Of a DNA stretch of 64,000 bases, positions 2,800-59,964 are shown one piece after another. The notes under the pieces are model-generated. The model searched no databases. It saw only the letters and a program-made list of their open reading frames with translations, and had not been told where the DNA came from. Each line of letters begins with the position of its first letter. Position 1 is the stretch's first letter. The position numbers and the translations under genes are program-made. The DNA is from Candidatus Omnitrophota bacterium (GTDB lineage: Bacteria > Omnitrophota > Gorgyraeia > Zapsychrales > Zapsychraceae), in assembly GCA_029261055.1 (NCBI GenBank), contig JAJDCA010000071.1:25778-89777 (forward strand). Reading direction: 5' to 3'.

Positions 2800-2920
2800 A
2801 GAAATGACGTTCCTCGGAGCAAGTACGCAAGGTATTGACTTAAAACATTACAACGAGGCAAGCCTCGGGGAATTGAACCCGTTTGAGATTGGCTAAATAA
2901 TTTGTTCAGCCAATCTCTTA
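2800..2920. repeat. Type B element copy 1, in reverse orientation
   Basis: Reverse complement reads TTAATTAAGAGATTGGCTGAACAAATTATTTAGCCAATCTCAAACGGGTTCAATTCCCCGAGGCTTGCCTCG.... Confidence 0.8.
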
Positions 2921-2945
2921 ATTAAATTAAAAAAGGAGAAGTTAA

Positions 2946-12390: not shown

Positions 12391-13763
12391 TTGAACACAT
12401 ATTAGCTAATCTTCAGAGTATCGGCATATTTATTATTTTTCTTGGCATTCTTATTACAGTGCACGAGTGGGGTCATTTTATTACCGCCAAGAAATTAGGT
12501 ATTAACGTGGAAGAATTTGCTTTAGGTTTTGGTCCGACACTTTTAAGTAAGCCCTACAATGGCACGAATTACATGATTAAGCTTTTTCCGTTAGGTGGTT
12601 ATGTAAAAATGGCTGGAGATGAACGGGATCGATGTAAAGGTTTGCCCGAGGAGTTTCTTTCAAAGCCGCCGGGTCATCGGGCCTTAGTGGTCCTTAACGG
12701 GCCGGTAGTGAATTTTGTGTTGGCGTATGTTTGCCTTGTGTTGGTATTTATGCTGGGATTTTCTAATCCTTCGACCGTAGTGGTTGGTATGCGTCAAGGT
12801 CTGCCGGCTCAGGTATCAGGGGTTCAGTTAGGAGATAAAATTGTAGAGGTTGACGGGCAAAAGGTATTTTATTTAAAAGAAATAATATCCCATATTGCAC
12901 AATCCACGCAAGAACAGGTGCAATTAAAAATTTTAAGAAATGGTCAGGAAATTGTAAAAAATATTGAGTCCAGAGTCGTTCATGAAAAAAATATGATTGG
13001 TCAGTATGAAGATAAGAGAACCATTGGGTTAGATGCGAATTCAAGTAAAGTTGGAGGTTTTAGTAAGGATGGTCCGGCGGAAGTTGCGGGATTTCAGGTA
13101 GGTGATCGTATTGTAGAAATCAATGGTCATGAAGTTTTTGGTTGGCAAGATTTGCAGAAGACTGTGAGTGAATCAAAGGAAAAAGCAATTACAATCAAGA
13201 TTTTACGTGAAGGTCAGGAACTTACAAAAATTGTGGCACCGGAAATTAAAAAATTGAAAACACGATCCGGTGAGGAAAAAGAGAAACGGATGATTGGTGT
13301 CGGCGCTATGCCGGAAAAATGGGTGACGCACAAATTTAATTTGTGGACGGCATTAGGGCGAGGGTATCATGAATTTGTTGATATAACAACAATGACCTAC
13401 AAAGCGCTTTATGCTATGGTGACGGGATCGATGTCTGCCCGAGAGAGTGTTGGCGGACCAGTGCTCATATTTAATATTGTTAAAGAAGCCAGTGCTTTGG
13501 GTTTTTCACATTTTCTTTTTATTCTTGGTGTGATCAGCCTTAATTTAGCCATTTTTAATCTTTTGCCCATTATTCCTTTAGATGGGGGCCATTTATTTTT
13601 ATTGGCAATAGAAAAAATTCGGGGGCGAGCGCTTTCGCCCAAGGCAGATGATTTGATCTCCCGAGTTGGTTTAAGTTTGATGATCCTTTTGGCTTTGTAT
13701 GTGTTTTACATTGATTTTGAGAGAATTGGGCTAATTAGTAAAATTAAAGGAATTTTTCACTAA
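12387..13763 (+). CDS. rseP: RIP metalloprotease (site-2 protease) with two PDZ domains
   Basis: HEWGHF zinc motif, tandem PDZ domains, and a C-terminal LDGG motif. ATG overlaps the dxr TGA. Confidence 0.9.
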   Translation: MIEHILANLQSIGIFIIFLGILITVHEWGHFITAKKLGINVEEFALGFGPTLLSKPYNGTNYMIKLFPLGGYVKMAGDERDRCKGLPEEFLSKPPGHRALVVLNGPVVNFVLAYVCLVLVFMLGFSNPSTVVVGMRQGLPAQVSGVQLGDKIVEVDGQKVFYLKEIISHIAQSTQEQVQLKILRNGQEIVKNIESRVVHEKNMIGQYEDKRTIGLDANSSKVGGFSKDGPAEVAGFQVGDRIVEINGHEVFGWQDLQKTVSESKEKAITIKILREGQELTKIVAPEIKKLKTRSGEEKEKRMIGVGAMPEKWVTHKFNLWTALGRGYHEFVDITTMTYKALYAMVTGSMSARESVGGPVLIFNIVKEASALGFSHFLFILGVISLNLAIFNLLPIIPLDGGHLFLLAIEKIRGRALSPKADDLISRVGLSLMILLALYVFYIDFERIGLISKIKGIFH

Positions 13764-13820
13764 TTAAGAGATTGGCTTAACAAATTATTTTGCCAATCTC
13801 CAACGGGTTTAATTTCCCGA
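13761..13820. repeat. Type B element copy 2, truncated, between rseP and the cpaF-like gene
   Basis: TAATTAAGAGATTGGCTTAACAAATTATTTTGCCAATCTCCAACGGGTTTAATTTCCCGA. Confidence 0.8.
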
Positions 13821-18241: not shown

Positions 18242-20728
18242 ATGACGGTTACGGAAATTGCAAAAATATACAATACAACGGATGATTACGTTTTAAAGAC
18301 ATTAAAGTCTTTGAAGTTAAAAGCTAAAGGTACTCAACAAGAACTTAATGCCGTGGTTGCGTCTGTTTTAAAAAGTGAATTAAATAAACATAAAGATACT
18401 ATGCCTAAGAAAGGCGAGGAAAAATCGGAAAAAGAAACGACGACTAAGAAAAAGGCTGTAAAAAAGAAGGCTGTAAAAAAAGAAAAAGAAGATTCTGAGA
18501 CAAGCAAAGAAAAGCCTGTTAAAGAAAAGGTAACGAAAGTCAAAGAAACGAAAGTCAAAGAAACGAAGGTCAAAGAATCCAAGGTCAAAGAAACAAAAGT
18601 TAAGAAATCAAAGGTTACAGAAGTCGAAGCTAAAAAGACTGAAAAGCCGGAAGCAACTACGACAAAAAAGAAAGCCACTACTACGAAAAAAGTTGTTACA
18701 AAAGAGCCTGTTAAGGCAAAAGTAAGGATTAGTAATGCCCCCGTTATTACTTTAAAACCTTTGAGTCGTAAAAGACGAAAACCTACAGGACCAGGATCAT
18801 CTGATGCCAGTAAGACAGCTCTTAAACATCAGGCAGAAAAAAGTAATGTGCCAACTGTTCCTGAAGGTGGTTTGGCCGCAGCGATAAAAGAAGCTTCGGC
18901 TGCATCTTTGGCAAATAAAGAATCTTCGGAACAAGAGGCTGTTCCAGAAAAATGGATAAGAGATGAATCCTTGCCGGATTTAGAAATCAATCTTCCTGTT
19001 ACGGTAAAAGAATTAGCGATTAAAATGCAACAGAAACCAAGCTTTGTTTTGAAAGAGTTGATGAAATTGGGTATTCTTGCGCATATTAATCAAAATCTTG
19101 ATGGAGATATTGTTAGTCGATTGACGATTAAGTTTGGATATAACTTAGCAAAGATTAAGACACAAGAAGAGCAGCTTATTGATATTCATAAACATGAAGA
19201 AGAAGATCCAAAACTTTTAAAGTCACGGGCTCCGGTTGTAACGTTTATGGGGCATGTTGATCATGGGAAAACTACCCTTGTAGATAGAATCAGGAAAACA
19301 AAAGTTGCCGATGCTGAGCATGGAGGTATTACGCAGCACATGGGAGCCTATTCTGTTGATCTTAAGAAAGGACGGATTACCTTTTTAGATACACCCGGAC
19401 ACGAAGCGTTTACATCGATGAGAGCGCGTGGCGCACACATTACAGATTTAGTTGTTCTTGTTGTCGCTGCTGATGATGGTATTATGCCGCAGACACAAGA
19501 GGCCATTGATCATGCCCGTGCGGCTAATGTTCCTATTGTTGTGGCGTTGACAAAAATTGACTTGCCCAATGCAGATTGTGATCGTGTTAAAAAACAGTTG
19601 GCTGAAATAAATTTGGCTGCAGAAGACTGGGGTGGAAAAACGGTGACTATCGGTGTATCTGCCATTACCGGAGAAGGGGTTGATGAATTGTTGGAATTGA
19701 TTCTTCTTGAGTCTGAAATGTTAGAGCTAAAAGCTAATACTCAGAAAAAAGCTTCGGGTATTGTCGTTGAAGCCCATATGAGCCAGGGCAAAGGTGCTGT
19801 AACAACGATGATTGTGCAAAGTGGAACATTAAATGCCGGTGAATTTGTTGTTGTAGGTCCTTATTATGGCAAAGTAAGAGCCATGTTTGATGATCACGCT
19901 CGCTCTGTAACAGCAGCTGGACCTTCTATGCCGGTAGAGGTGTTAGGTTTGTCTGATGTGCCTGAGGCAGGCGACATGTTTTATGTTGTGGAGGACGAAA
20001 AGCGAGCCAGAGATATTTCTTTTAAACGGCAGGAGCAGTTAAAAGATAAAAGATTGCATGAAAATCAGAAGCTTACACTTGAAGACCTTCATGCACAGCT
20101 CCAGGAAGGTGCTGTTAAAGAGCTTAATGTAGTGTTGAAGTCAGACGTGCAAGGATCATTAGAGGCGCTAAAAGATTCTTTATCCAAAATTCCTAGTGAT
20201 AAGGTCAAAATAAAATTTATTCATGTTGGCGTCGGTGAAATTAATACATCAGATGTTCTTTTAGCCGCAGCTTCCAAAGCAATTATTATTGCATTTCATG
20301 TTGGGACAGATGTGCGGGCTAAAGAAGAGGTGAGGCGCCAGCCGGTTGAAATACGGGAATACCGTATTATTTATGATGCGGTAACAGATATTAAACAAGC
20401 CCTAGAAGGATTGTTGGAAGCAAAAACAAAGAAAAACTTTTTAGGGCGAGCAGAAATACGTCAGGTTTTTAAACTTTCTAAACACGGTATTGTTGCTGGT
20501 TGTTATTTGATGAAAGGGAAAGTCCATCGCAAAGCTCATGCGGATGTTATTCGGAATGAAGAGGTTGTTTTTTCCGGTAAACTTTCATCTTTAAAGAGAT
20601 TTAAGGATGATGTTAAGGAAGTGACAGAAGGAATGGAATGCGGTATTGTTGTTTCCAATTTTGATAAATATCAATCCGGCGATATTATTGAGATGTATGA
20701 ATTAGAATCGGTAGCTCAAAAATTATGA
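18242..20728 (+). CDS. infB: Translation initiation factor IF-2
   Basis: G-domain [18 protein letters not shown], and NKID motifs. The N-terminus is Lys-rich with KVKETKVKE tandem repeats. Confidence 0.95.
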
Positions 20729-22445: not shown

Positions 22446-22460
22446 AGATTAAATAATTTT

Positions 22461-22522
22461 AAGGTGACTCGTCGCTCGTGGCGCGTCGCTCGTAAAAAAT
22501 GAGTCACTCGCCACGAGCGACG
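22461..22522. repeat. GC-rich palindromic leader element (family C, copy 2), ending 5 nt before the ruvB ATG
   Basis: TTTTAAGGTGACTCGTCGCTCGTGGCGCGTCGCTCGTAAAAAATGAGTCACTCGCCACGAGCGACG is homologous to the 30856-30950 copy. Confidence 0.65.
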
Positions 22523-22527
22523 ATAAA

Positions 22528-26167: not shown

Positions 26168-26422
26168 ATGTTTGTGTTTATTGCTGGATTTTTTCTTTTG
26201 GCGGCATTGATGTTTCAAATAATAGAATTAAGAAATTTGTCACTTTTGCGGGATGTTTCTGCAACGTCGTATGTCATTTTTACAATAGGATTCTTTTTGT
26301 GGGGTATTTACGGAATTAATACCCATTTAATAGCTTTTTCGGTGGTGGGTTTTTCAGGTGTACTTTTGTGTGCTTTGGCGATTAGTTTAAAGCTTATGGA
26401 TCAAGGCGATGACGGCGAATAA
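26168..26422 (+). CDS. Small membrane protein (3 predicted TM), unknown function
   Basis: 84 aa, hydrophobic, with a GAGG RBS. Confidence 0.5.
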   Translation: MFVFIAGFFLLAALMFQIIELRNLSLLRDVSATSYVIFTIGFFLWGIYGINTHLIAFSVVGFSGVLLCALAISLKLMDQGDDGE

Positions 26423-27224
26423 CATTACGAGTTTGACGAATCCACGGATTAAATCTGTGGTTCGGCTAAGGAATCGACGGCAAAGGGATCAGGATGGATT
26501 AACAATTGTCGAAGGTCTTCGTGAGGTTCAATGTGCGTTGGCTGCAGGAGTTTTGTTGCAAGAATGTTTTGTGGTGCAAGAAGAGATTACGAGCCCTAGG
26601 GCTCAGAATCTCAAGGATTTGATTTTAAAAGAAATTAGTAAACTAAAGATTCCAATCGTTACAACACCTCCAGCTGTTTTTCAAAAAATATCTTACGGTG
26701 ATCGTCATGAAGGTGTCTTAGCTGTTTGTAAAGTGCCCGTGGATTCATTTGAACAGTTTAAGGGGGAATTGAAGTCTTTATTTGTTGTCGTTGAACATGT
26801 GGAAAAGCCGGGAAACTTGGGGGCGATTTTAAGGACGTGTGATGCTGCAGGCGTTGGAGGTGTTATTGTGTGTGATCCTAAGACAGACCTTTACAATCCT
26901 AATGTCATTCGTGCAAGTTTGGGCACAGTCTTTACGAATAAAGTTGTGGTAGCATCCAATGAAGAGGTTTTAGCATTTTTAAAAAAGAAGAAGGTTAAAA
27001 TATGTGCAGCTTTACCGCAGGGGAATGCGGTGTACACAGAATCGCCGTTGACAGGTCCGTTAGCTATTGTTGTAGGAAGTGAGGAAAGTGGATTAAGCGA
27101 TTTCTGGCCACAGTATGCTGATTGGCAAGTTCGTATTCCTATGCACGGAGAGGCCGATTCTCTTAATGTTTCTACTTCGACAGCTATTTTGCTGTATGAA
27201 GCATTGAGGCAGAGGAAATTCTAG
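26409..27224 (+). CDS. TrmH/SpoU-family RNA 2'-O-methyltransferase
   Basis: SPOUT fold motifs (VVEHVEKPGNLGAILRTCDAAG, VVGSEESGLS, IPMHGEADSLNVS). Confidence 0.85.
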   Translation: MTANNITSLTNPRIKSVVRLRNRRQRDQDGLTIVEGLREVQCALAAGVLLQECFVVQEEITSPRAQNLKDLILKEISKLKIPIVTTPPAVFQKISYGDRHEGVLAVCKVPVDSFEQFKGELKSLFVVVEHVEKPGNLGAILRTCDAAGVGGVIVCDPKTDLYNPNVIRASLGTVFTNKVVVASNEEVLAFLKKKKVKICAALPQGNAVYTESPLTGPLAIVVGSEESGLSDFWPQYADWQVRIPMHGEADSLNVSTSTAILLYEALRQRKF

Positions 27225-27338
27225 CTTTCAGACGTCAGCAATCAGACGTCAGTCATAATTAAATGATTTTAAAAGCTGAAGGCTGCAGACTGATTGCTGA
27301 TGTCTGAAAATTGCCGAGCAAAGCGAGGTTTAACTAAA

Positions 27339-28052
27339 ATGCGTTTACAAGTATTTTTATCTAGAAATGGGGTTTGTTCCCGTCGGAACGCTATGGATTT
27401 GATCAAAGCCGGACATGTTACGGTCAATGATCGATGTGTCCGTGAGCCATCAACGGGTATTGATTCTGACACAGACAGAGTTCATGTTGATGGTCAGAGG
27501 GTTAAGGATAAAGTGTACACTTACGTTTTGTTACATAAGCCAACCGGGTATGTGACGACAAAGACTGATCGATTTGCAGAAAAAACAGTGTTTGAATTAT
27601 TACCCAAGCAGTATGCCCATTTGAGTCCGGTTGGCCGGTTAGATAAAAATACGGAGGGGCTTTTACTTTTTACTAATGACGGGGATATGATTTTTAAATT
27701 GACCCATCCCAAATTTCATGTCGACAAAACATATTTTGTTAAGGTTGCCGGGAAGCTTGATGGCGAAACTAAACTAAAAGTAGAAAAAGGTGTTTGGCTT
27801 AAAGGATGGAAAACAGCGCCGGCTAAAATTAAAAATATTCGGCGATTAAAAGACGAAACGATGCTTAATATTACCATTCATGAAGGACGTAAACGACAAA
27901 TTCGTCTTATGTTTGCTAAGGTTAAACATAAAGTGATGTACTTACAGCGTGTTTCTCAAGGTCCATTGCAATTGGGCGTATTGAAAAAAGGGCGTTTTAG
28001 AGTATTGAAAGGAAAAGAAATAGAAAGATTAAGTCTTGCTGTCTCTCAATGA
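27339..28052 (+). CDS. Pseudouridine synthase, RsuA/RluB family (S4 domain + catalytic domain)
   Basis: S4 domain (RLQVFLSRNGVCSRR) and a catalytic Asp in GRLDKNTEGLLLFTNDG. The ATG at 27339 has a GAGG RBS, and the longer ORF-track start at 27294 would run through an inverted repeat. Confidence 0.85.
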   Translation: MRLQVFLSRNGVCSRRNAMDLIKAGHVTVNDRCVREPSTGIDSDTDRVHVDGQRVKDKVYTYVLLHKPTGYVTTKTDRFAEKTVFELLPKQYAHLSPVGRLDKNTEGLLLFTNDGDMIFKLTHPKFHVDKTYFVKVAGKLDGETKLKVEKGVWLKGWKTAPAKIKNIRRLKDETMLNITIHEGRKRQIRLMFAKVKHKVMYLQRVSQGPLQLGVLKKGRFRVLKGKEIERLSLAVSQ

Positions 28053-28061
28053 TTTTTATTT

Positions 28062-28136
28062 TTAATTAGGAATTTCTAGCTTTAAAGAAATTCCAAAAGG
28101 GTCTAATTCCCCGAGGCTTGCCCCGAGGAGATTCAT
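28062..28136. repeat. Modular intergenic palindromic element, type A copy 1 (hairpin GGAATTTCT-agctttaa-AGAAATTCC + gggtctaattccCCGAGGcttgCCCCGagg module)
   Basis: Near-identical copy at 33227-33300 and a half copy at 31777-31810. The 3' module is shared with the type B elements. Confidence 0.8.
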
Positions 28137-28151
28137 TTTCTTTTACAACAT

Positions 28152-30113
28152 ATGATTACTATTACAGATTTAACTATGGGGTTTTCTCAACGGACGTTGT
28201 TTAAAGATGTCGGTTTGAGTATTTTTCCAAATGAAAAAATTGGTCTAACCGGGCCGAATGGAGCTGGTAAAACAACGCTTTTTTCTATTATTTTGGGGAG
28301 TACGGAACCTGTCAGTGGGCAAGTCCAGATTCAGAAAAATATTAATATTGGATATCTACCACAGGAAGCTCATTTCACGTCCAAAAAAACTGTTCTCGAT
28401 GAGCTGACAGAAGGGGACCAACGCATACGTGATTTGAAAAATGAAAAACGGAAATTAGAAGATGCCCATAAGGCGGATTCTCATCGTTACGGAGATATTT
28501 TGCATGAATTAGAGCAATTAGGCATTTATGACATTGAGCATAAAGCTGAAAAAATTTTAATGGGATTAGGTTTTAAAGAAGAGGATTTTGAAAAGCCCAT
28601 TGTGGAATTAAGCGGCGGCTGGCAGATGAGGACGCTTTTAGCAAAATTGTTGACCTATCCGTATGATGTGATCCTTTTGGATGAGCCGACGAACTATTTA
28701 GATTTATCGGCAACGCTTTGGTTAAAAAGTTTTTTGCATGCATACAAAGGCGCTTTTATTCTTATTTCACATGATAGGCTTTTTTTAAATGATGTGACAA
28801 ATTACACCATTATTCTCGAAGGCGCGCAGATGTTGAAAGTGAAAGGGAATTACGAGGAATTTGAACGGCAGAGAGAAATGACTCAAAAGACTCTGGAAAA
28901 AAAGCAAAAGGTGATTGAGAAAAAGCGTAAGCAATTAGAGCGTTTTGCGCAAAGATTTCATGCCCAACCGAATAAAGCTGCTTCTGTGCGTAATAAGCGC
29001 AGGATGATTGATCGCCTTGAAGACGTGCAATTAAGTACGGAAAATAAAAGTGTTGGTGTTTTTGAGTTTTCAAATGTCCCATCTAGTGGTTACCTTGTAG
29101 CCCATTTAGAAAAAGTGAGTAAGGCTTATGGGCCTAAACAAGTGTACAAAGATGTAGATTTAGAAATTACACGTGGACAAAAAGTTTGTTTAGTTGGACC
29201 TAATGGGGCTGGAAAGTCAACGCTTTTAAAAATGTTGGCCAAGGCCCTTGAGCCGGACACTGGAAAACTTAAATACGGGCATAATGTTGAATACGGATAT
29301 TTTTCTCAAACAAGGCTCGATGTTCTGCAACCGCATCGCAGTGCTTTTGATGAAGTTATTACGTCTGGTCCGCCCGGTACCCCAGCTTTAAAAGTAAGGG
29401 CTTTGTTAGGTTTATTCAATTTTCATGGGGATGATGTTTTTAAACAAGTAAAGGTTTTATCCGGTGGGGAGAAGAGTCGGTTAATCCTTGCTAAGCTTCT
29501 CATCAATCCTCCAAATTTTATGTTGTTAGATGAGCCAACAACGCATTTAGATCTTGATGGTGTAAAGGCTTTGACCTCAGCTTTGCAAGGATATGAGGGG
29601 ACGGTATGTTTTATTAGTCATGATTTGTATTTTATTCAGGAAGTGGCCGATTGTATTATTGATGTTAATGGCGGAAAGTTAAAGACGTATCTTGGTGGAT
29701 TAGATTATTATTTAGAAAAAAGCGGACAAAAAACTTTAGGGGGATCTAAGCAGGCGAGTGGAAAAGTGTCGCAAGATAAGGCTCAGGTGGCGTCATTAAC
29801 TCAGGGGAAGAAGGGGAAGAAATTAAAGCAAAAAGGCGGTTCAAAATTAGATGCCTTGCATGATCAGCATAAACAAGCCCTTAAGCGTATTACACAGATT
29901 AAAAATGAAATAAAGAAATTAGAGCAAGAGCAAAAAGATTTAGAGATGGAAAGTTATGTAAAGTCACGGCATTTATCGAAATCTTTTGATAAACAAGATT
30001 CGGGAACACTTAAAGAATATGGACAGCGTCTGAAATGGATTCAAGGACGGCAGAGAGACATTGAGAGTACGATTAAAAGTTTAGAAGAAGAAAAAACTAG
30101 AATTAGTAAATAA
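28152..30113 (+). CDS. ABC-F family ATPase (tandem ABC domains, no TMD; ribosome-associated type) with a C-terminal coiled-coil tail
   Basis: Two Walker A boxes (GPNGAGKTT; GPNGAGKST), two LSGG signatures, an inter-domain linker and a K/E-rich tail. Confidence 0.88.
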   Translation: MITITDLTMGFSQRTLFKDVGLSIFPNEKIGLTGPNGAGKTTLFSIILGSTEPVSGQVQIQKNINIGYLPQEAHFTSKKTVLDELTEGDQRIRDLKNEKRKLEDAHKADSHRYGDILHELEQLGIYDIEHKAEKILMGLGFKEEDFEKPIVELSGGWQMRTLLAKLLTYPYDVILLDEPTNYLDLSATLWLKSFLHAYKGAFILISHDRLFLNDVTNYTIILEGAQMLKVKGNYEEFERQREMTQKTLEKKQKVIEKKRKQLERFAQRFHAQPNKAASVRNKRRMIDRLEDVQLSTENKSVGVFEFSNVPSSGYLVAHLEKVSKAYGPKQVYKDVDLEITRGQKVCLVGPNGAGKSTLLKMLAKALEPDTGKLKYGHNVEYGYFSQTRLDVLQPHRSAFDEVITSGPPGTPALKVRALLGLFNFHGDDVFKQVKVLSGGEKSRLILAKLLINPPNFMLLDEPTTHLDLDGVKALTSALQGYEGTVCFISHDLYFIQEVADCIIDVNGGKLKTYLGGLDYYLEKSGQKTLGGSKQASGKVSQDKAQVASLTQGKKGKKLKQKGGSKLDALHDQHKQALKRITQIKNEIKKLEQEQKDLEMESYVKSRHLSKSFDKQDSGTLKEYGQRLKWIQGRQRDIESTIKSLEEEKTRISK

Positions 30114-30118
30114 TTTTT

Positions 30119-30376
30119 ATGAAGCTTAAATTAGACATGCATGATATTTATTCTGAGGGTAAGAAGCTTGAATCAGCGTTGGCGGGTATTATGCAAGAAG
30201 CACAGACGAAAAAGGCTAAGTTGGTTGAGATTATTCCCGGGAAGGGAAGCGGACAGTTGAAGAAATATGTTTTACGTACTCTTGAAAAAAAGTATAAAGG
30301 CATTTATCATAGGATTGAAAAAGATGATAAAAATTGGGGTCGGATTTTTGTTCATTTCCGTTGGAATAAATCTTGA
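30119..30376 (+). CDS. Smr (small MutS-related) domain protein
   Basis: LDMHD...EIIPGKGSGQLKKYV matches the Smr domain core (LDLHG...IHGKGTG). Confidence 0.7.
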   Translation: MKLKLDMHDIYSEGKKLESALAGIMQEAQTKKAKLVEIIPGKGSGQLKKYVLRTLEKKYKGIYHRIEKDDKNWGRIFVHFRWNKS

Positions 30377-30385
30377 GGGATAGCT

Positions 30386-30847
30386 ATGAAGCGACTGAGT
30401 GTTCTTTTTTTGCCGTATAGGAAATTATATAATTTCCTATCGGCACCAAAAATACGCCTCAAGTTATTGATGAATGCAATTTTCTTGAGTGTTTTATTTT
30501 TATCGAGTTGTACTAAATTAAAGTACCTTCCGCAGCTTTTAACTCTAAAAGATCTGGCTAATGAGCAGGAACAACTTAATCAGCATGTTGAGGAGGCTGA
30601 TAAAAAATTCCAGAATCTTTTACAGGCCATTAAAACAGACACCATTCGTGTGTATGCTAATCAAAAAGGTATTATTGAGGCTTTCGGTGATCCGGTTCTT
30701 ATTGAGGATGTCGTAGGTCATACGAAGGCTTCAGTAGAATGGATGTATCGTTACTCCACGCAGTTTTTTACTTCAGAAAAAGTCTACCTGTATTTTGATT
30801 CTTCTAAAAATCTTATTGAATGGGAATATGTGCCTGGGAAGGGATAG
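30386..30847 (+). CDS. Putative lipoprotein, unknown function
   Basis: Lipobox LFLSSC; no recognizable domain. Confidence 0.4.
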   Translation: MKRLSVLFLPYRKLYNFLSAPKIRLKLLMNAIFLSVLFLSSCTKLKYLPQLLTLKDLANEQEQLNQHVEEADKKFQNLLQAIKTDTIRVYANQKGIIEAFGDPVLIEDVVGHTKASVEWMYRYSTQFFTSEKVYLYFDSSKNLIEWEYVPGKG

Positions 30848-30855
30848 AAATTTTA

Positions 30856-30950
30856 AGGTAGATCGTCGATCGTGACGCGTGGCTCTTAAAAAACGAGTCA
30901 CTAGTCACGAGCGACGAGCCACTAAAAGTCGCCGAGCGAAAGCGAGGACT
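30856..30950. repeat. GC-rich palindromic element (family C, copy 3) in the convergent gap before greA
   Basis: TTTTAAGGTAGATCGTCGATCGTGACGCGTGGCTCTTAAAAAACGAGTCACTAGTCACGAGCGACGAGCC... is homologous to the ruvB-leader copy. Confidence 0.65.
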
Positions 30951-31711: not shown

Positions 31712-31776
31712 AAATTACTTGGACAATTGTTTGATTTTGATCAACGTACTTTTACGTTAATTTAAGAAAATTTGTT

Positions 31777-31810
31777 TAATTAGGAATTTCTAGCTTTAAA
31801 GAAATTCCAA
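31777..31810. repeat. Type A element, truncated copy (first hairpin only)
   Basis: TTAATTAGGAATTTCTAGCTTTAAAGAAATTCCAA is identical to the 5' half of the 28062 copy. Confidence 0.75.
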
Positions 31811-33221: not shown

Positions 33222-33226
33222 TGTAT

Positions 33227-33300
33227 TAATTAAGGAATTTCTAGTTTTAAAGAAATTCCAAAAGGGTCTAATTCCCCGAGGCTTGCCTCGAGGAGATTCA
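33227..33300. repeat. Type A element copy 2, inserted between mlaF and mlaD inside the mla operon
   Basis: 74 bp with ~96% identity to the 28062-28136 copy. Confidence 0.8.
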
Positions 33301-34017
33301 ATTCATCAAGAAATCTTTAACAAAAGGATCTTGTGATTTTCTTAATTCAGATTCTGTGCCTTGAGCCGTAATTTTTCCGCCGTGCATTAAGACGACGCGG
33401 TCGGCAATACGAAAAGAATTGCGAATGTCGTGCGAAGTAATCACGGTCGTGCAGTTGAGTTTTCTGGATGCATCATGGATTAAATCTGAGATATCCCGGC
33501 TTCGTATGGGGTCTAACCCGGAAGTCGGTTCATCGCAAAAAAGAATTTTTGAATCTAGGATAATAGCACGGGCTAAGGCCACACGTTTACGCATTCCGCC
33601 ACTTAACTCAGAAGGGTAAACTTTCTCAATACCTTTTAAATCTACGATTTCTAGAATTTCTGTGACCTTTTGGGCAATAATTTTTTTGCTAAATTGTGTA
33701 TGTTCGTGCAGAGGAAAAGCAATATTTTCAGCCACGTTCATAAAATCATACAAGGCCCCTTCTTGAAAAAGATAACCAATATTGGATCTGATTTTTAACA
33801 ATTCTTTTTCAGAGAGGCAAGTAATATCTTTGGCATTGATATGGATTGCCCCTTGATCTGGTTTTAAAAGTCCGATTAAATGTTTTAAAAGAACGCTTTT
33901 GCCTGTGCCGCTTTGGCCAAGAACTACAAGAATTTCTCCTTCTTTGATCTCTAAATTAATGTTATCCAGGACAGATTTTCCAGAAAATGTCTTTGAAAGA
34001 TTTTCAATTTTGATCAT
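33298..34017 (-). CDS. mlaF: ABC transporter ATP-binding protein MlaF
   Basis: MIKIENLSKTF..., Walker A GQSGTGKS, LSGGMRKRV, Walker B ILFCDEPTSGLD. The start at 34017 is an internal ATG of the longer ORF 33298..34131. Confidence 0.88.
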   Translation of the reverse strand: MIKIENLSKTFSGKSVLDNINLEIKEGEILVVLGQSGTGKSVLLKHLIGLLKPDQGAIHINAKDITCLSEKELLKIRSNIGYLFQEGALYDFMNVAENIAFPLHEHTQFSKKIIAQKVTEILEIVDLKGIEKVYPSELSGGMRKRVALARAIILDSKILFCDEPTSGLDPIRSRDISDLIHDASRKLNCTTVITSHDIRNSFRIADRVVLMHGGKITAQGTESELRKSQDPFVKDFLMN

Positions 34018-34381: not shown

Positions 34382-34622
34382 AATGTTTATTTATGTAGAC
34401 ACGAAATCGCTTTTGAACAAAAATTAATACATTCGGCTCAGAAGAGGCCTCGTTCTGCTCGGCCTCTAATTCGCCGTATGCATTAATTTTTGTTTTGCGC
34501 GATTACGAATCTAAATTCTTAATTTGTAAACCCTCGGCCAGCCCATCTTAACATAAGCTCCAATAGACGGATTGACTAACGCTTCCGTAATTTGAGCAGT
34601 TGTAATGTTCCCTAGTGTAGCA

Positions 34623-41491: not shown

Positions 41492-41569
41492 AAGTGTAAT
41501 TCATGTAGTATCCGTTGCATTTTGCACGATTTTATACCAACTCCATTAAATGATTCCCCTTTTTACCTT

Positions 41570-41600
41570 GGTTATTCTCGTTAAAGCATCGAGAATAACC
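41570..41600 (+). terminator. Perfect 11-bp stem hairpin (GGTTATTCTCG-ttaaagcat-CGAGAATAACC), a candidate terminator
   Basis: Directly downstream of the two-gene unit. Followed by an A/T-rich tract but no clean U-run. Confidence 0.4.
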
Positions 41601-41620
41601 GAATTAATTTTGGCAATTAT

Positions 41621-41745
41621 TTAATTAAGAGATTGGCTGAACAAATTATTTAGCCAATCTCCAACGGGTTTAATTCCTCGAGGCTTGCCTCGTATTTAGG
41701 AATTCCGTTTGATACCTCGTGGGCTTGCCCCGGGGAGACTTCATT
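41621..41745. repeat. Modular intergenic palindromic element, type B copy 3 (hairpin GAGATTGGC-loop-GCCAATCTC + ccaacgggtttaattcc + CGAGGcttgCCTCG, plus a further degenerate module)
   Basis: Other copies: 13761-13820 (same orientation, truncated) and 2800-2920 (reverse orientation, with an extra module). Confidence 0.8.
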
Positions 41746-44214: not shown

Positions 44215-44556
44215 ACCTCAGACTCCATCGTGACCAAAAATTAATACATGAAAGTTTATTTTTCCGGGGGAAGGGAAATGATACTTAATAAAAGTATAAA
44301 GTATTTTCTAAGAAAATTCTATATTTTCCGATTTTTTAGTCAGGATTGAGAATTACTTAATTTATTACGTAATTCTTTTAAAAGTATCATTTTTGACATT
44401 GATATGAAAAGTTTGTCGAGGAGCTCTTTGTACAAATATCCAGGCTCCGCGGAGCCTAGATATTTGTACAAAACTAGTTAGTGCTTCGACTAGATTGAAA
44501 TTATCTGTTGCTAATTTCAATTTCGCTCAGCACACGCTCCGATTCATGTGAAGATA

Positions 44557-59510: not shown

Positions 59511-59735
59511 TTATCGTCTTTTCTTTGCTGCTTTCTTTTTTGTCGCTTTTTTCTTTACAGCTTTTTTCTTTGTTACCGCTTTTTTTGTTGCTTTTTTCTT
59601 TACGGTTTTTTTCTTTGTCACTGCTTTCTTTACAGCTTTTTTCTTTGTTACAGCCTTTTTCTTTGTTACGGCTTTTTTCTTTGTTACCTTTTTCTTTACG
59701 GCTTTTTTCTTTGTTGCTTTCTTTTTGACTGCCAT
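59511..59735 (-). CDS. Lysine/alanine-rich histone H1-like small basic protein built of tandem (A/V)(V/T)KKK(A) repeats
   Basis: 74 aa [21 protein letters not shown].... Strong AGGAGG RBS 7 nt upstream, and a terminator downstream. Confidence 0.75.
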   Translation of the reverse strand: MAVKKKATKKKAVKKKVTKKKAVTKKKAVTKKKAVKKAVTKKKTVKKKATKKAVTKKKAVKKKATKKKAAKKRR

Positions 59736-59964
59736 ATGATTCCTCCTTTGGTTAGGTTTTTTCTAACGTTTATATTTTCATAGTAGCATACTGTTTTGCA
59801 TATGCAAAAATAATCTGAGGTTTTTTGAGAAGAATTTTATTAAATTTTTAAAAAAAGCGTTTTTTGTCGACGAGAAATATGGTAAGTGGTTTAAAGAAAT
59901 AAAATAAAGTAAAGTTTATTTATAAATATAAAGAATAAAAATAATTTTTTAAAAAAATTAAATA

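Follow-up and report, generated by a model that had tools for sequence, protein, structure and literature searches.

Six copies of a small, intergenic palindromic element were found in a 64,000-nucleotide (nt) stretch of contig JAJDCA010000071.1 (positions 25,778 to 89,777 of the forward strand; the whole stretch is hereafter called the window) of Candidatus Omnitrophota bacterium. These elements are very probably non-autonomous derivatives of the IS200 group of the IS200/IS605 family of insertion sequences (IS), of the kind known as palindrome-associated transposable elements (PATEs). The homology of both of their ends to the ends of elements that carry the transposase gene tnpA was demonstrated, and every defining feature of IS200/IS605 ends that could be tested was found in them. 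They are a fresh example of a well-known kind of mobile DNA and not a new system. Any present-day mobility, like the source of the TnpA serving it, is something we infer.

The six copies comprise three of type B (B1 to B3), two of type A (A1 and A2) and one type A half copy; the complete elements are 76-125 nt long. A preliminary description, made from the letters of the sequence, had proposed a dispersed, non-coding, mobile-element-derived repeat family built of modules, one of which is shared by types A and B. This outline held, and all of the copies reported there were present at the positions given or a few bases away. With up to 2 mismatches allowed, the 33-nt type B hairpin was found three times; with 1 allowed, there were three matches to the 26-nt type A hairpin and four to the shared module AATTCCCCGAGGCTTGCCTCG (expected for each in dinucleotide-preserving shuffles of the window, 0.00). 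A repeat finder gave identities of 96% over 75 nt between B1 and B3, 93% over 60 nt between B2 and B3, and 90% over 83 nt between A1 and A2.

The shared module was found far outside the window. In a scan of one genome per species, its 21-mer AATTCCYCGAGGCTTGCCYCG was detected at 117 or more loci, mostly in Bacteroidota, as well as in one complete Rickettsiales chromosome and in metagenome-assembled genomes (MAGs) labelled Neomarinimicrobiota, Bdellovibrionales, Cloacimonadota, Deinococcales, UBP11 and Planctomycetales. When metagenomes were scanned with the linker hairpin of type B, at least 31 copies were detected in 30 contigs, all from metagenome VAPK01, which represents a relative of the window's organism. 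According to the preliminary description, finding only the copies of the window would have weakened the mobile-element interpretation in favour of local duplication; with at least 31 type B copies in the relative and at least 117 loci of the module across phyla, this was not the outcome. The 21-mer opens three kinds of element, namely a one-hairpin form of ~46 nt, a gene-less form of ~135-150 nt and a form of ~560 nt with a transposase gene. When the loci were oriented on the motif, a conserved TTAAT always preceded the 21-mer at a short, variable distance, and a second hairpin, ATACCTCG-GGGCTTGCCC-CGAGG, lay 40-540 nt after it, followed by a tail ending in TTCATT, TTGATT, TTTATT or TTTACT. 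Hypervariability in the family is concentrated in the linker, whose length runs from 6 nt to 46 nt over the loci; the hairpin-bearing linkers of the window measure 38-46 nt. In the Flavobacteriaceae chromosome OZ252001.1, 16 copies were aligned, and the similarity of 15 of them extended from TTAATC to GTTCATT, giving a unit of ~135 nt; in the remaining copy (L106) divergence starts inside the element. A Paludibacteraceae MAG contains six diverged copies of the 46-nt one-hairpin form, TTTAATCAAAAGAATTCCTCGAGGCTTGCCTCGGGGTTATTCATT, which occurs in Neomarinimicrobiota MAGs as well.

The ~560-nt version with both of the same ends was found at 11 loci among the matches listed. The Rickettsiales chromosome has three copies that are 100% identical, and Gillisia limnaea has two identical ones. 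Each of these elements has a single open reading frame (ORF) of ~150 amino acids with the motifs YHLV, KYR and HVHFLIQS. The product passed the Pfam Y1_Tnp model (115-129 bits) and the NCBIfam IS200/IS605 transposase equivalog (117-125 bits against a cut-off of 55), failed the model of REP-associated tyrosine transposases (RAYTs; 24.9 bits against a cut-off of 80), and matched the solved ISDra2 and IS608 TnpA structures at E-values of ~1e-14. In these elements, tnpA sits between the left and right hairpins in direct order. Because the same 21-mer opens the tnpA-bearing elements, the segment originally described as a "3' module" is the left-end subterminal hairpin of an IS200-group IS.

The transposases of IS608 and ISDra2 bind to the hairpins, and a guide tetranucleotide located just 5' of the hairpin foot selects the cut sites through base interactions with the target tetranucleotide of the left flank and with the final four bases at the right end (PMC6006769, PMC3597680). 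A corresponding rule was apparent at the right ends collected here: a guide X-A-T-Y, the four bases before the hairpin, goes with an end X'-A-Y'-T (primes denote complements), and the element ends in this tetranucleotide 8-11 nt past the hairpin. Five guide/end classes were observed (GATA/CATT, CATA/GATT, AATA/TATT, AATG/TACT and GATG/CACT), and their consistency indicates several compensatory switches. In a register-free test, the predicted tetranucleotide was present in 67 of 78 distinct guide/tail combinations, which are not equivalent to independent events; over 5000 shuffles of the guides, the count averaged 18.7 and never exceeded 34. When the right-end rule is applied to the left guide AATT, it predicts TAAT, the conserved left flank. 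Therefore, TAAT was read as the target and the left cleavage site, and would be a target rather than the first bases of the element. Because the search pattern held AATT constant, support for this left half comes from the agreement of the sequences, not from covariation. TAAT adjoins all six window copies and nearly all of the 122 and 31 copies elsewhere, and the sequence upstream of it is variable. In B3, the guide GATA predicts CATT, and CATT was found; the type B copies of the related organism have AATA/TATT instead, which amounts to a compensatory pair of changes. By this rule, B3 is the only copy in the window that looks competent.

The anatomy of B3, a complete two-ended element, is given in Table 1. 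When folded as single-stranded DNA, B3 formed exactly the three expected hairpins (-25.9 kcal/mol, z = -5.9), and none of 200 shuffles was as good. The second small hairpin noticed previously represents the left-end hairpin; the third one, the right-end hairpin, had not been recognised separately. The layout of B1 (z = -3.0 for the single-stranded fold) is the same, except that its right hairpin has decayed. The "extra degenerate module" formerly ascribed to this copy does exist; it is, however, this decayed right-end hairpin, the homologue of B3 41712-41735. What is left of B2 is its linker hairpin and the beginning of its left end, both end hairpins having been lost. B2 and the type A half copy are dead fragments. 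The termini of the window copies (TTAAT... and ...TTCATT) are not inverted repeats, and a comparison of copies revealed no direct duplication flanking any of the four complete ones (B1, B3, A1 and A2), so the check for target-site duplications proposed in the preliminary description gave a negative answer.

Table 1. Coordinates of the six element copies in the window and of the parts of B3 and A1.
Feature	Type or sequence	Position in window	Strand	Remarks
B1	type B	2803-2925	-	between T2SS-F-like and pseudopilin genes; outline complete
B2	type B remnant	13761-13820	+	
B3	type B, complete two-ended element	41621-41745	+	flanking TTAAT through final CATT
A1	type A	28062-28137	+	
A2	type A	33226-33303	+	between MlaF-like and MlaD genes
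A half copy	type A, half copy	31776-31810	+	TTAAT and linker hairpin, nothing more
B3 left flank	TTAAT	41621-41625	+	followed by TAA, then linker hairpin
B3 target	TAAT	41622-41625	+	putative target and left cleavage tetranucleotide flanking left end
B3 linker hairpin	GAGATTGGCTGAACAAATTATTTAGCCAATCTC	41629-41661	+	perfect, 33 nt; between cleavage site and left guide
B3 stretch after linker hairpin	CAACGGGTTT	between 41661 (end of linker hairpin) and 41672 (start of AATT)	+	
B3 left guide	AATT	41672-41675	+	
B3 left-end hairpin	CCTCGAGGC-TT-GCCTCG	41676-41692	+	
B3 stem extension of left-end hairpin	AGGAATT	41698-41704	+	
B3 right guide	GATA	41711-41714	+	preceded by short spacer
B3 right-end hairpin	CCTCG(T)GGGC-TT-GCCCCGGGG	41715-41735	+	bulged T
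B3 tail	AGACTTCATT	ends 41745	+	10 nt; final CATT at 41742-41745
B3 predicted empty junction	...ATTATTTAAT / GGGTTTGATATT			left flank ending TAAT joined straight to right flank
A1 linker hairpin	26 nt	28069-28094	+	
A1 guide	AATT	28105-28108	+	followed by one hairpin and a tail ending CATT

A1 and A2 have a linker hairpin unlike that of type B, and a single end hairpin. The 5' arm of this hairpin is the left-end arm CCCCGAGGC in both copies; the 3' arm, in A1, is that of the right end, GCCCCGAGG, and leads into the right-end tail. As judged from these arms, the single hairpin of type A looks like a fusion of the left and right ends, the product expected from recombination of the near-identical end hairpins across their shared GGCTTGCC loop. 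Three further left/right fusion deletions, independent and with different end points, were found among the type B copies of VAPK01 (L120, L127 and L141). The "recombining, modular repeat system" of the preliminary description therefore stands only in part: the shared module is the left end of one lineage and gives no evidence of two recombining families, while the left/right fusions in type A and in these three copies do seem to reflect recombination.

On the proposed mechanism, a Y1 HUH TnpA encoded elsewhere in the genome would bind the two hairpins of the single-stranded top strand at the replication fork. The guides, and not the protein, would read the cleavage tetranucleotides by base interactions. 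TnpA would cut after TAAT and after CATT, and a single-stranded circle would be released, which would reinsert 3' of another TAAT with no target duplication. [quoted passage not shown] IS608 is sensitive to linker length (PMC3597680). By analogy, folding of the linker hairpin may keep the effective distance from cleavage site to guide short. At present, B3 is perhaps about equally likely to be mobile or immobile, and the probability that the other window copies are mobile seems low.

It is unlikely that the one-hairpin forms, namely type A and the 46-nt element, are themselves mobile. They keep the tetranucleotide class of their local two-hairpin relatives (CATT, TACT or TATT) with no matching guide, and several of them have unique deletion end points. 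Both features point to recurrent deletion and lean against mobility. If the one-hairpin forms were mobile, a Y1 transposase would be moving an element that has only one hairpin and one guide, the latter mismatching the right site, and the large perfect linker hairpins might then be selected modules restoring the geometry from cleavage site to guide.

The type B copies of VAPK01 are located at unrelated loci and are mostly two-ended. MAG CAZIRV01 contains the same type B variant, and because some of its copies share flanks with VAPK01 contigs (e.g., L017 with L147), the two were taken to represent the same population. The VAPK01 contig L133 is syntenic with window positions 27294-30847, with protein identities of 60% (rluB), 72% (abcF), 85% and 48%. 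In L133, rluB and abcF overlap by ATGA and have no spacer, whereas in the window they are separated by a 99-nt spacer, of which A1 takes 76 nt. With rluB and abcF proteins only 60-72% identical, this comparison shows a gain or loss at the A1 site and not a precise empty site. In four type B copies (L057, L119, L136 and L139), the right part is replaced or interrupted after ...GCTTAGG by another palindromic unit, AACCTCGACAA...TTGTCGAGGT, which suggests that a second small element is nested there or that a composite is proliferating.

The + strand of the window is G-rich in every 8-kb segment (skew of +0.07 to +0.26); it therefore has the sequence of a lagging-strand template. The top strand of the element lies on the G-rich strand in five of the six window copies and in 15 of the 22 scorable copies of the related organism, or 20:8 combined (p of ~0.04 by our own binomial estimate). 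Orientation to the lagging-strand template is the direction expected for the IS200/IS605 family (PMC6006769). Over all loci the ratio was 58:35, which is confounded, and no clear orientation signal was seen in OZ252001.1, where the local skew is a poor guide. As a separate observation, the GC skew of the window is unusually strong and dips at 28-40 kb, where the genes change strand.

Several points weigh against the assignment to the IS200 group or limit it. No tnpA, and hence no autonomous partner of these elements, was found in the 64-kb window or in the 30 VAPK01 type B loci. A search with the TnpA of a full-length relative returned thousands of homologues, mostly on tiny contigs, and no Omnitrophota label was present among the best 120. 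For the left-end half of the guide rule, the search pattern itself had fixed AATT. B1 violates the rule, with an AATA guide and a CATT end, in addition to having a decayed right hairpin, and type A has the AATT guide alone yet ends in CATT. Most of the window copies may therefore be fossils. The element boundaries and the lack of duplications were derived from comparison of copies and not from a nucleotide-level empty site, and the preference for the G-rich strand is no more than suggestive.

Coding sequence makes up ~91% of the window, and all six copies lie between ORFs; their orientation does not track the direction of the neighbouring genes. The TAA stop codon of an M50 peptidase gene falls within the TAAT of B2. 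As noticed previously, one copy lies in the mla operon: this is A2, located between the MlaF-like ATPase gene and the MlaD gene. The ATPase ORF ends inside A2, whose right tail holds its last codon and its stop, and 4 nt separate the TTAAT of A2 from the start codon of mlaD. A2 thus constitutes the entire mlaF-mlaD spacer. At B1, a short-read contig from the same genome (L118, Logan SRR15505515) stops 78 nt past gspF, inside the element (about window position 2866); this break is consistent with disruption of the assembly by the B1 repeat.

It could also be supposed that the elements are structured RNAs selected by the host, serving as 3' untranslated region stabilisers, terminators or small RNAs, with a G(CUUG)C tetraloop and a T-loop-like GGGTTCAATTCCC as their functional parts. 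Their hairpins are indeed stable and have a CUUG loop, and those in the gspF/gspG and mlaF/mlaD operon spacers would be co-transcribed; however, B1, A2 and the half copy are antisense to their operons or flanking genes. No Rfam family reached the gathering score anywhere in the window, and the only sub-threshold hits were eukaryotic microRNA-like ones at the E-value threshold, on a palindrome neighbouring B3, which were judged spurious. No terminator-like site was found at B1, after gspF, contrary to the terminator role suggested for this copy in the preliminary description, and the syntenic site in L133 is empty. Furthermore, the covariation ties the guide to an unpaired terminal tetranucleotide, as in single-stranded DNA transposition, and not helix partners to each other. 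An origin as host-selected RNA is thus very unlikely, although a side effect of the elements on mRNA is possible. The T-arm-like appearance of GGGTTCAATTCCC also raised the question of a tRNA-derived origin, which was rejected: ARAGORN found no tRNA in the window, and the stretch consists of linker, AATT guide and stem.

Repetitive extragenic palindromes (REPs) and bacterial interspersed mosaic elements (BIMEs), kept by a domesticated single-copy RAYT, resemble the window copies in being short, intergenic, multi-copy hairpins in mosaic arrangements with a guide tetranucleotide 5' of the stem. RAYTs are related to TnpA of IS200 (PMC6006769), and some homologues of the TnpA of the full-length elements are labelled 'RayT' by JGI. 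On the other hand, the guides here are AATT and GATA and not GT[AG]G, the GTAG guide being absent, and the associated transposase passes the IS200/IS605 equivalog and falls far below the RAYT cut-off, as described above. This transposase gene lies in direct order between distinct left and right ends, in autonomous insertion sequences that occur as identical ~560-nt elements in multiple copies, and, in contrast to REPs, which are species-specific (PMC6006769), the hairpin recurs in conserved form across phyla. The REP label was accordingly dropped, and repeats of the REP/BIME type that are not IS derivatives were regarded as very improbable. [quoted passage not shown] An end related to the omega RNA of TnpB/IscB or to a bridge RNA was rejected, since the full-length relatives carry tnpA only and no Rfam hit was obtained.

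As IS200-group derivatives, the elements were compared with the known systems. They share with IS200 (Salmonella, tnpA only), IS608 and ISDra2 subterminal imperfect hairpins at both ends on one strand, a guide tetranucleotide 5' of each hairpin foot, a conserved short target at the left flank, and the lack of inverted repeats and of target duplication; a Y1 HUH TnpA homologous to those of IS608 and ISDra2 is present in the full-length relatives. They differ in the lack of a transposase in the window copies and in features specific to this lineage: its hairpin sequence, TAAT as the target, and CATT or TATT as the right end. The left linker of IS608 is 19 nt (PMC3597680), in contrast to 38-46 nt here, with an extra perfect hairpin of 26 or 33 nt.

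The PATEs of Haloquadratum walsbyi have been described as elements with near-terminal palindromes, no inverted terminal repeats, no target duplication and a length too short for a transposase (PMC3119063), a definition that covers the window elements of 76-125 nt. Their 'terminal-only' forms of 52 bp have been attributed to repeat-mediated deletion between the two palindromes, and the sequence outside the palindrome is heterogeneous (PMC3119063). Likewise, the palindromes of the window elements are related to IS605-type ends, the sequence from terminus to palindrome is heterogeneous, and loss of the core between palindromes has given one-palindrome forms, here type A, L120, L127 and L141. The host of the published PATEs is a haloarchaeon and that of the present ones a bacterium (Omnitrophota-like), the sequences are unrelated, and the parent is of the IS1341/tnpB type there and of the tnpA-only IS200 type here.

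With regard to possible vehicles of the family, none of the viral contigs searched carried the 21-mer, and carriage by phages was rejected as a spreading route on this ground. A plasmid search with a full-length element gave matches at the level of tnpA only, which were 65-75% identical over at most ~65% of the query and annotated as IS200/IS605. The hairpin sequence was not found in the body of papers searched.

Some copies outside the window were of unusual structure. At three loci (L067, L089 and L111), the left-end unit TTTAATC-N9-GGG is tandemly doubled before otherwise normal elements, the second unit beginning directly after an internal TAAT. This doubling may be due to insertion 3' of a TAAT within another left end, or to slippage; the remainder expected of an outer element was not found past the right end of these loci. 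In OZ252001.1, a gene-less copy at 2.216 Mb (L098) has a flanking direct duplication of ~30 nt, GTTCTGTTTTTAGTCAATTTTCTTTGTTTTAAT, which is atypical for the family, and the palindrome of L069 on the - strand, TTAATCTAAAGAATTCCCCGAGGC-TT-GCCTCGGGGAATTCTTTAGATTAA, is a left end fused to its own reverse complement.

Other repeats were found near the elements and elsewhere in the window. An imperfect palindrome of ~80 nt with the core TTATTCTCG-N9-CGAGAATAA at positions 41545-41625 ends in ATTTAAT and supplies the TAAT beside B3. The same palindrome is also located upstream of type B copies in the relative (L017, L147, L008 and L094), and several type B copies in the relative share the right flank GGAATTGGTATTA. 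The palindrome looks like a separate repeat family into which type B inserts or with which it travels. A GC-rich intergenic repeat, present in two copies that are 86% identical (22455-22523 and 30849-30917), follows directly after stop codons. It has the arms TCGTCGCTCGTGGCG / CGCCACGAGCGACGA and GTGACTC / GAGTCAC in a crossing, pseudoknot-like order and is unrelated to IS200-type ends; in L133, a type B element lies ~180 nt downstream of the counterpart of the gene preceding the second copy. Intergenic inverted repeats were also observed at 27226-27309 (27-nt arms, 85%), 34416-34494 (34-nt arms, 82%) and 44427-44472 (23-nt arms, 96%, no spacer), and various kinds of palindromic spacer seem to be abundant in the genome. 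A 15-nt tandem repeat at 59519-59761 apparently encodes a lysine-rich repeat on the - strand, and another 15-nt tandem repeat lies in the N-terminal part of the IF-2 gene (18512-18616). By its IF-2 protein, the organism groups with Candidatus Omnitrophota: the best hits, several of which bear an Omnitrophica/Omnitrophota label, show 56-72% identity. Finally, the 'echo' of the type A hairpin mentioned in the preliminary description, GGAAATTCTAGCTTT at 27213-27232, does overlap the stop codon of the 26409-27224 ORF and matches at 16 of 19 positions in the register used there, but it has more than 3 mismatches in the register searched by us. It is weak and could be a relic or a chance match.

A precise and testable anatomy thus replaces what appeared to be a "modular repeat system", and the six stretches can be annotated as IS200/IS605-derived PATEs. 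A PATE-type element is now recorded in an uncultured Omnitrophota-like lineage. For the genome that carries them, the elements are repeats that break short-read assemblies, and within operon spacers they contribute stop codons and would displace ribosome-binding regions. For the family, the natural guide-to-cleavage-site code in five variants provides a substrate set for the study of how Y1 transposases read their sites. One hairpin is conserved to the base among Bacteroidota, Rickettsiales, Bdellovibrionales, Neomarinimicrobiota and Omnitrophota-like genomes, and this identity across phyla fits horizontal spread of a single IS200 clade.

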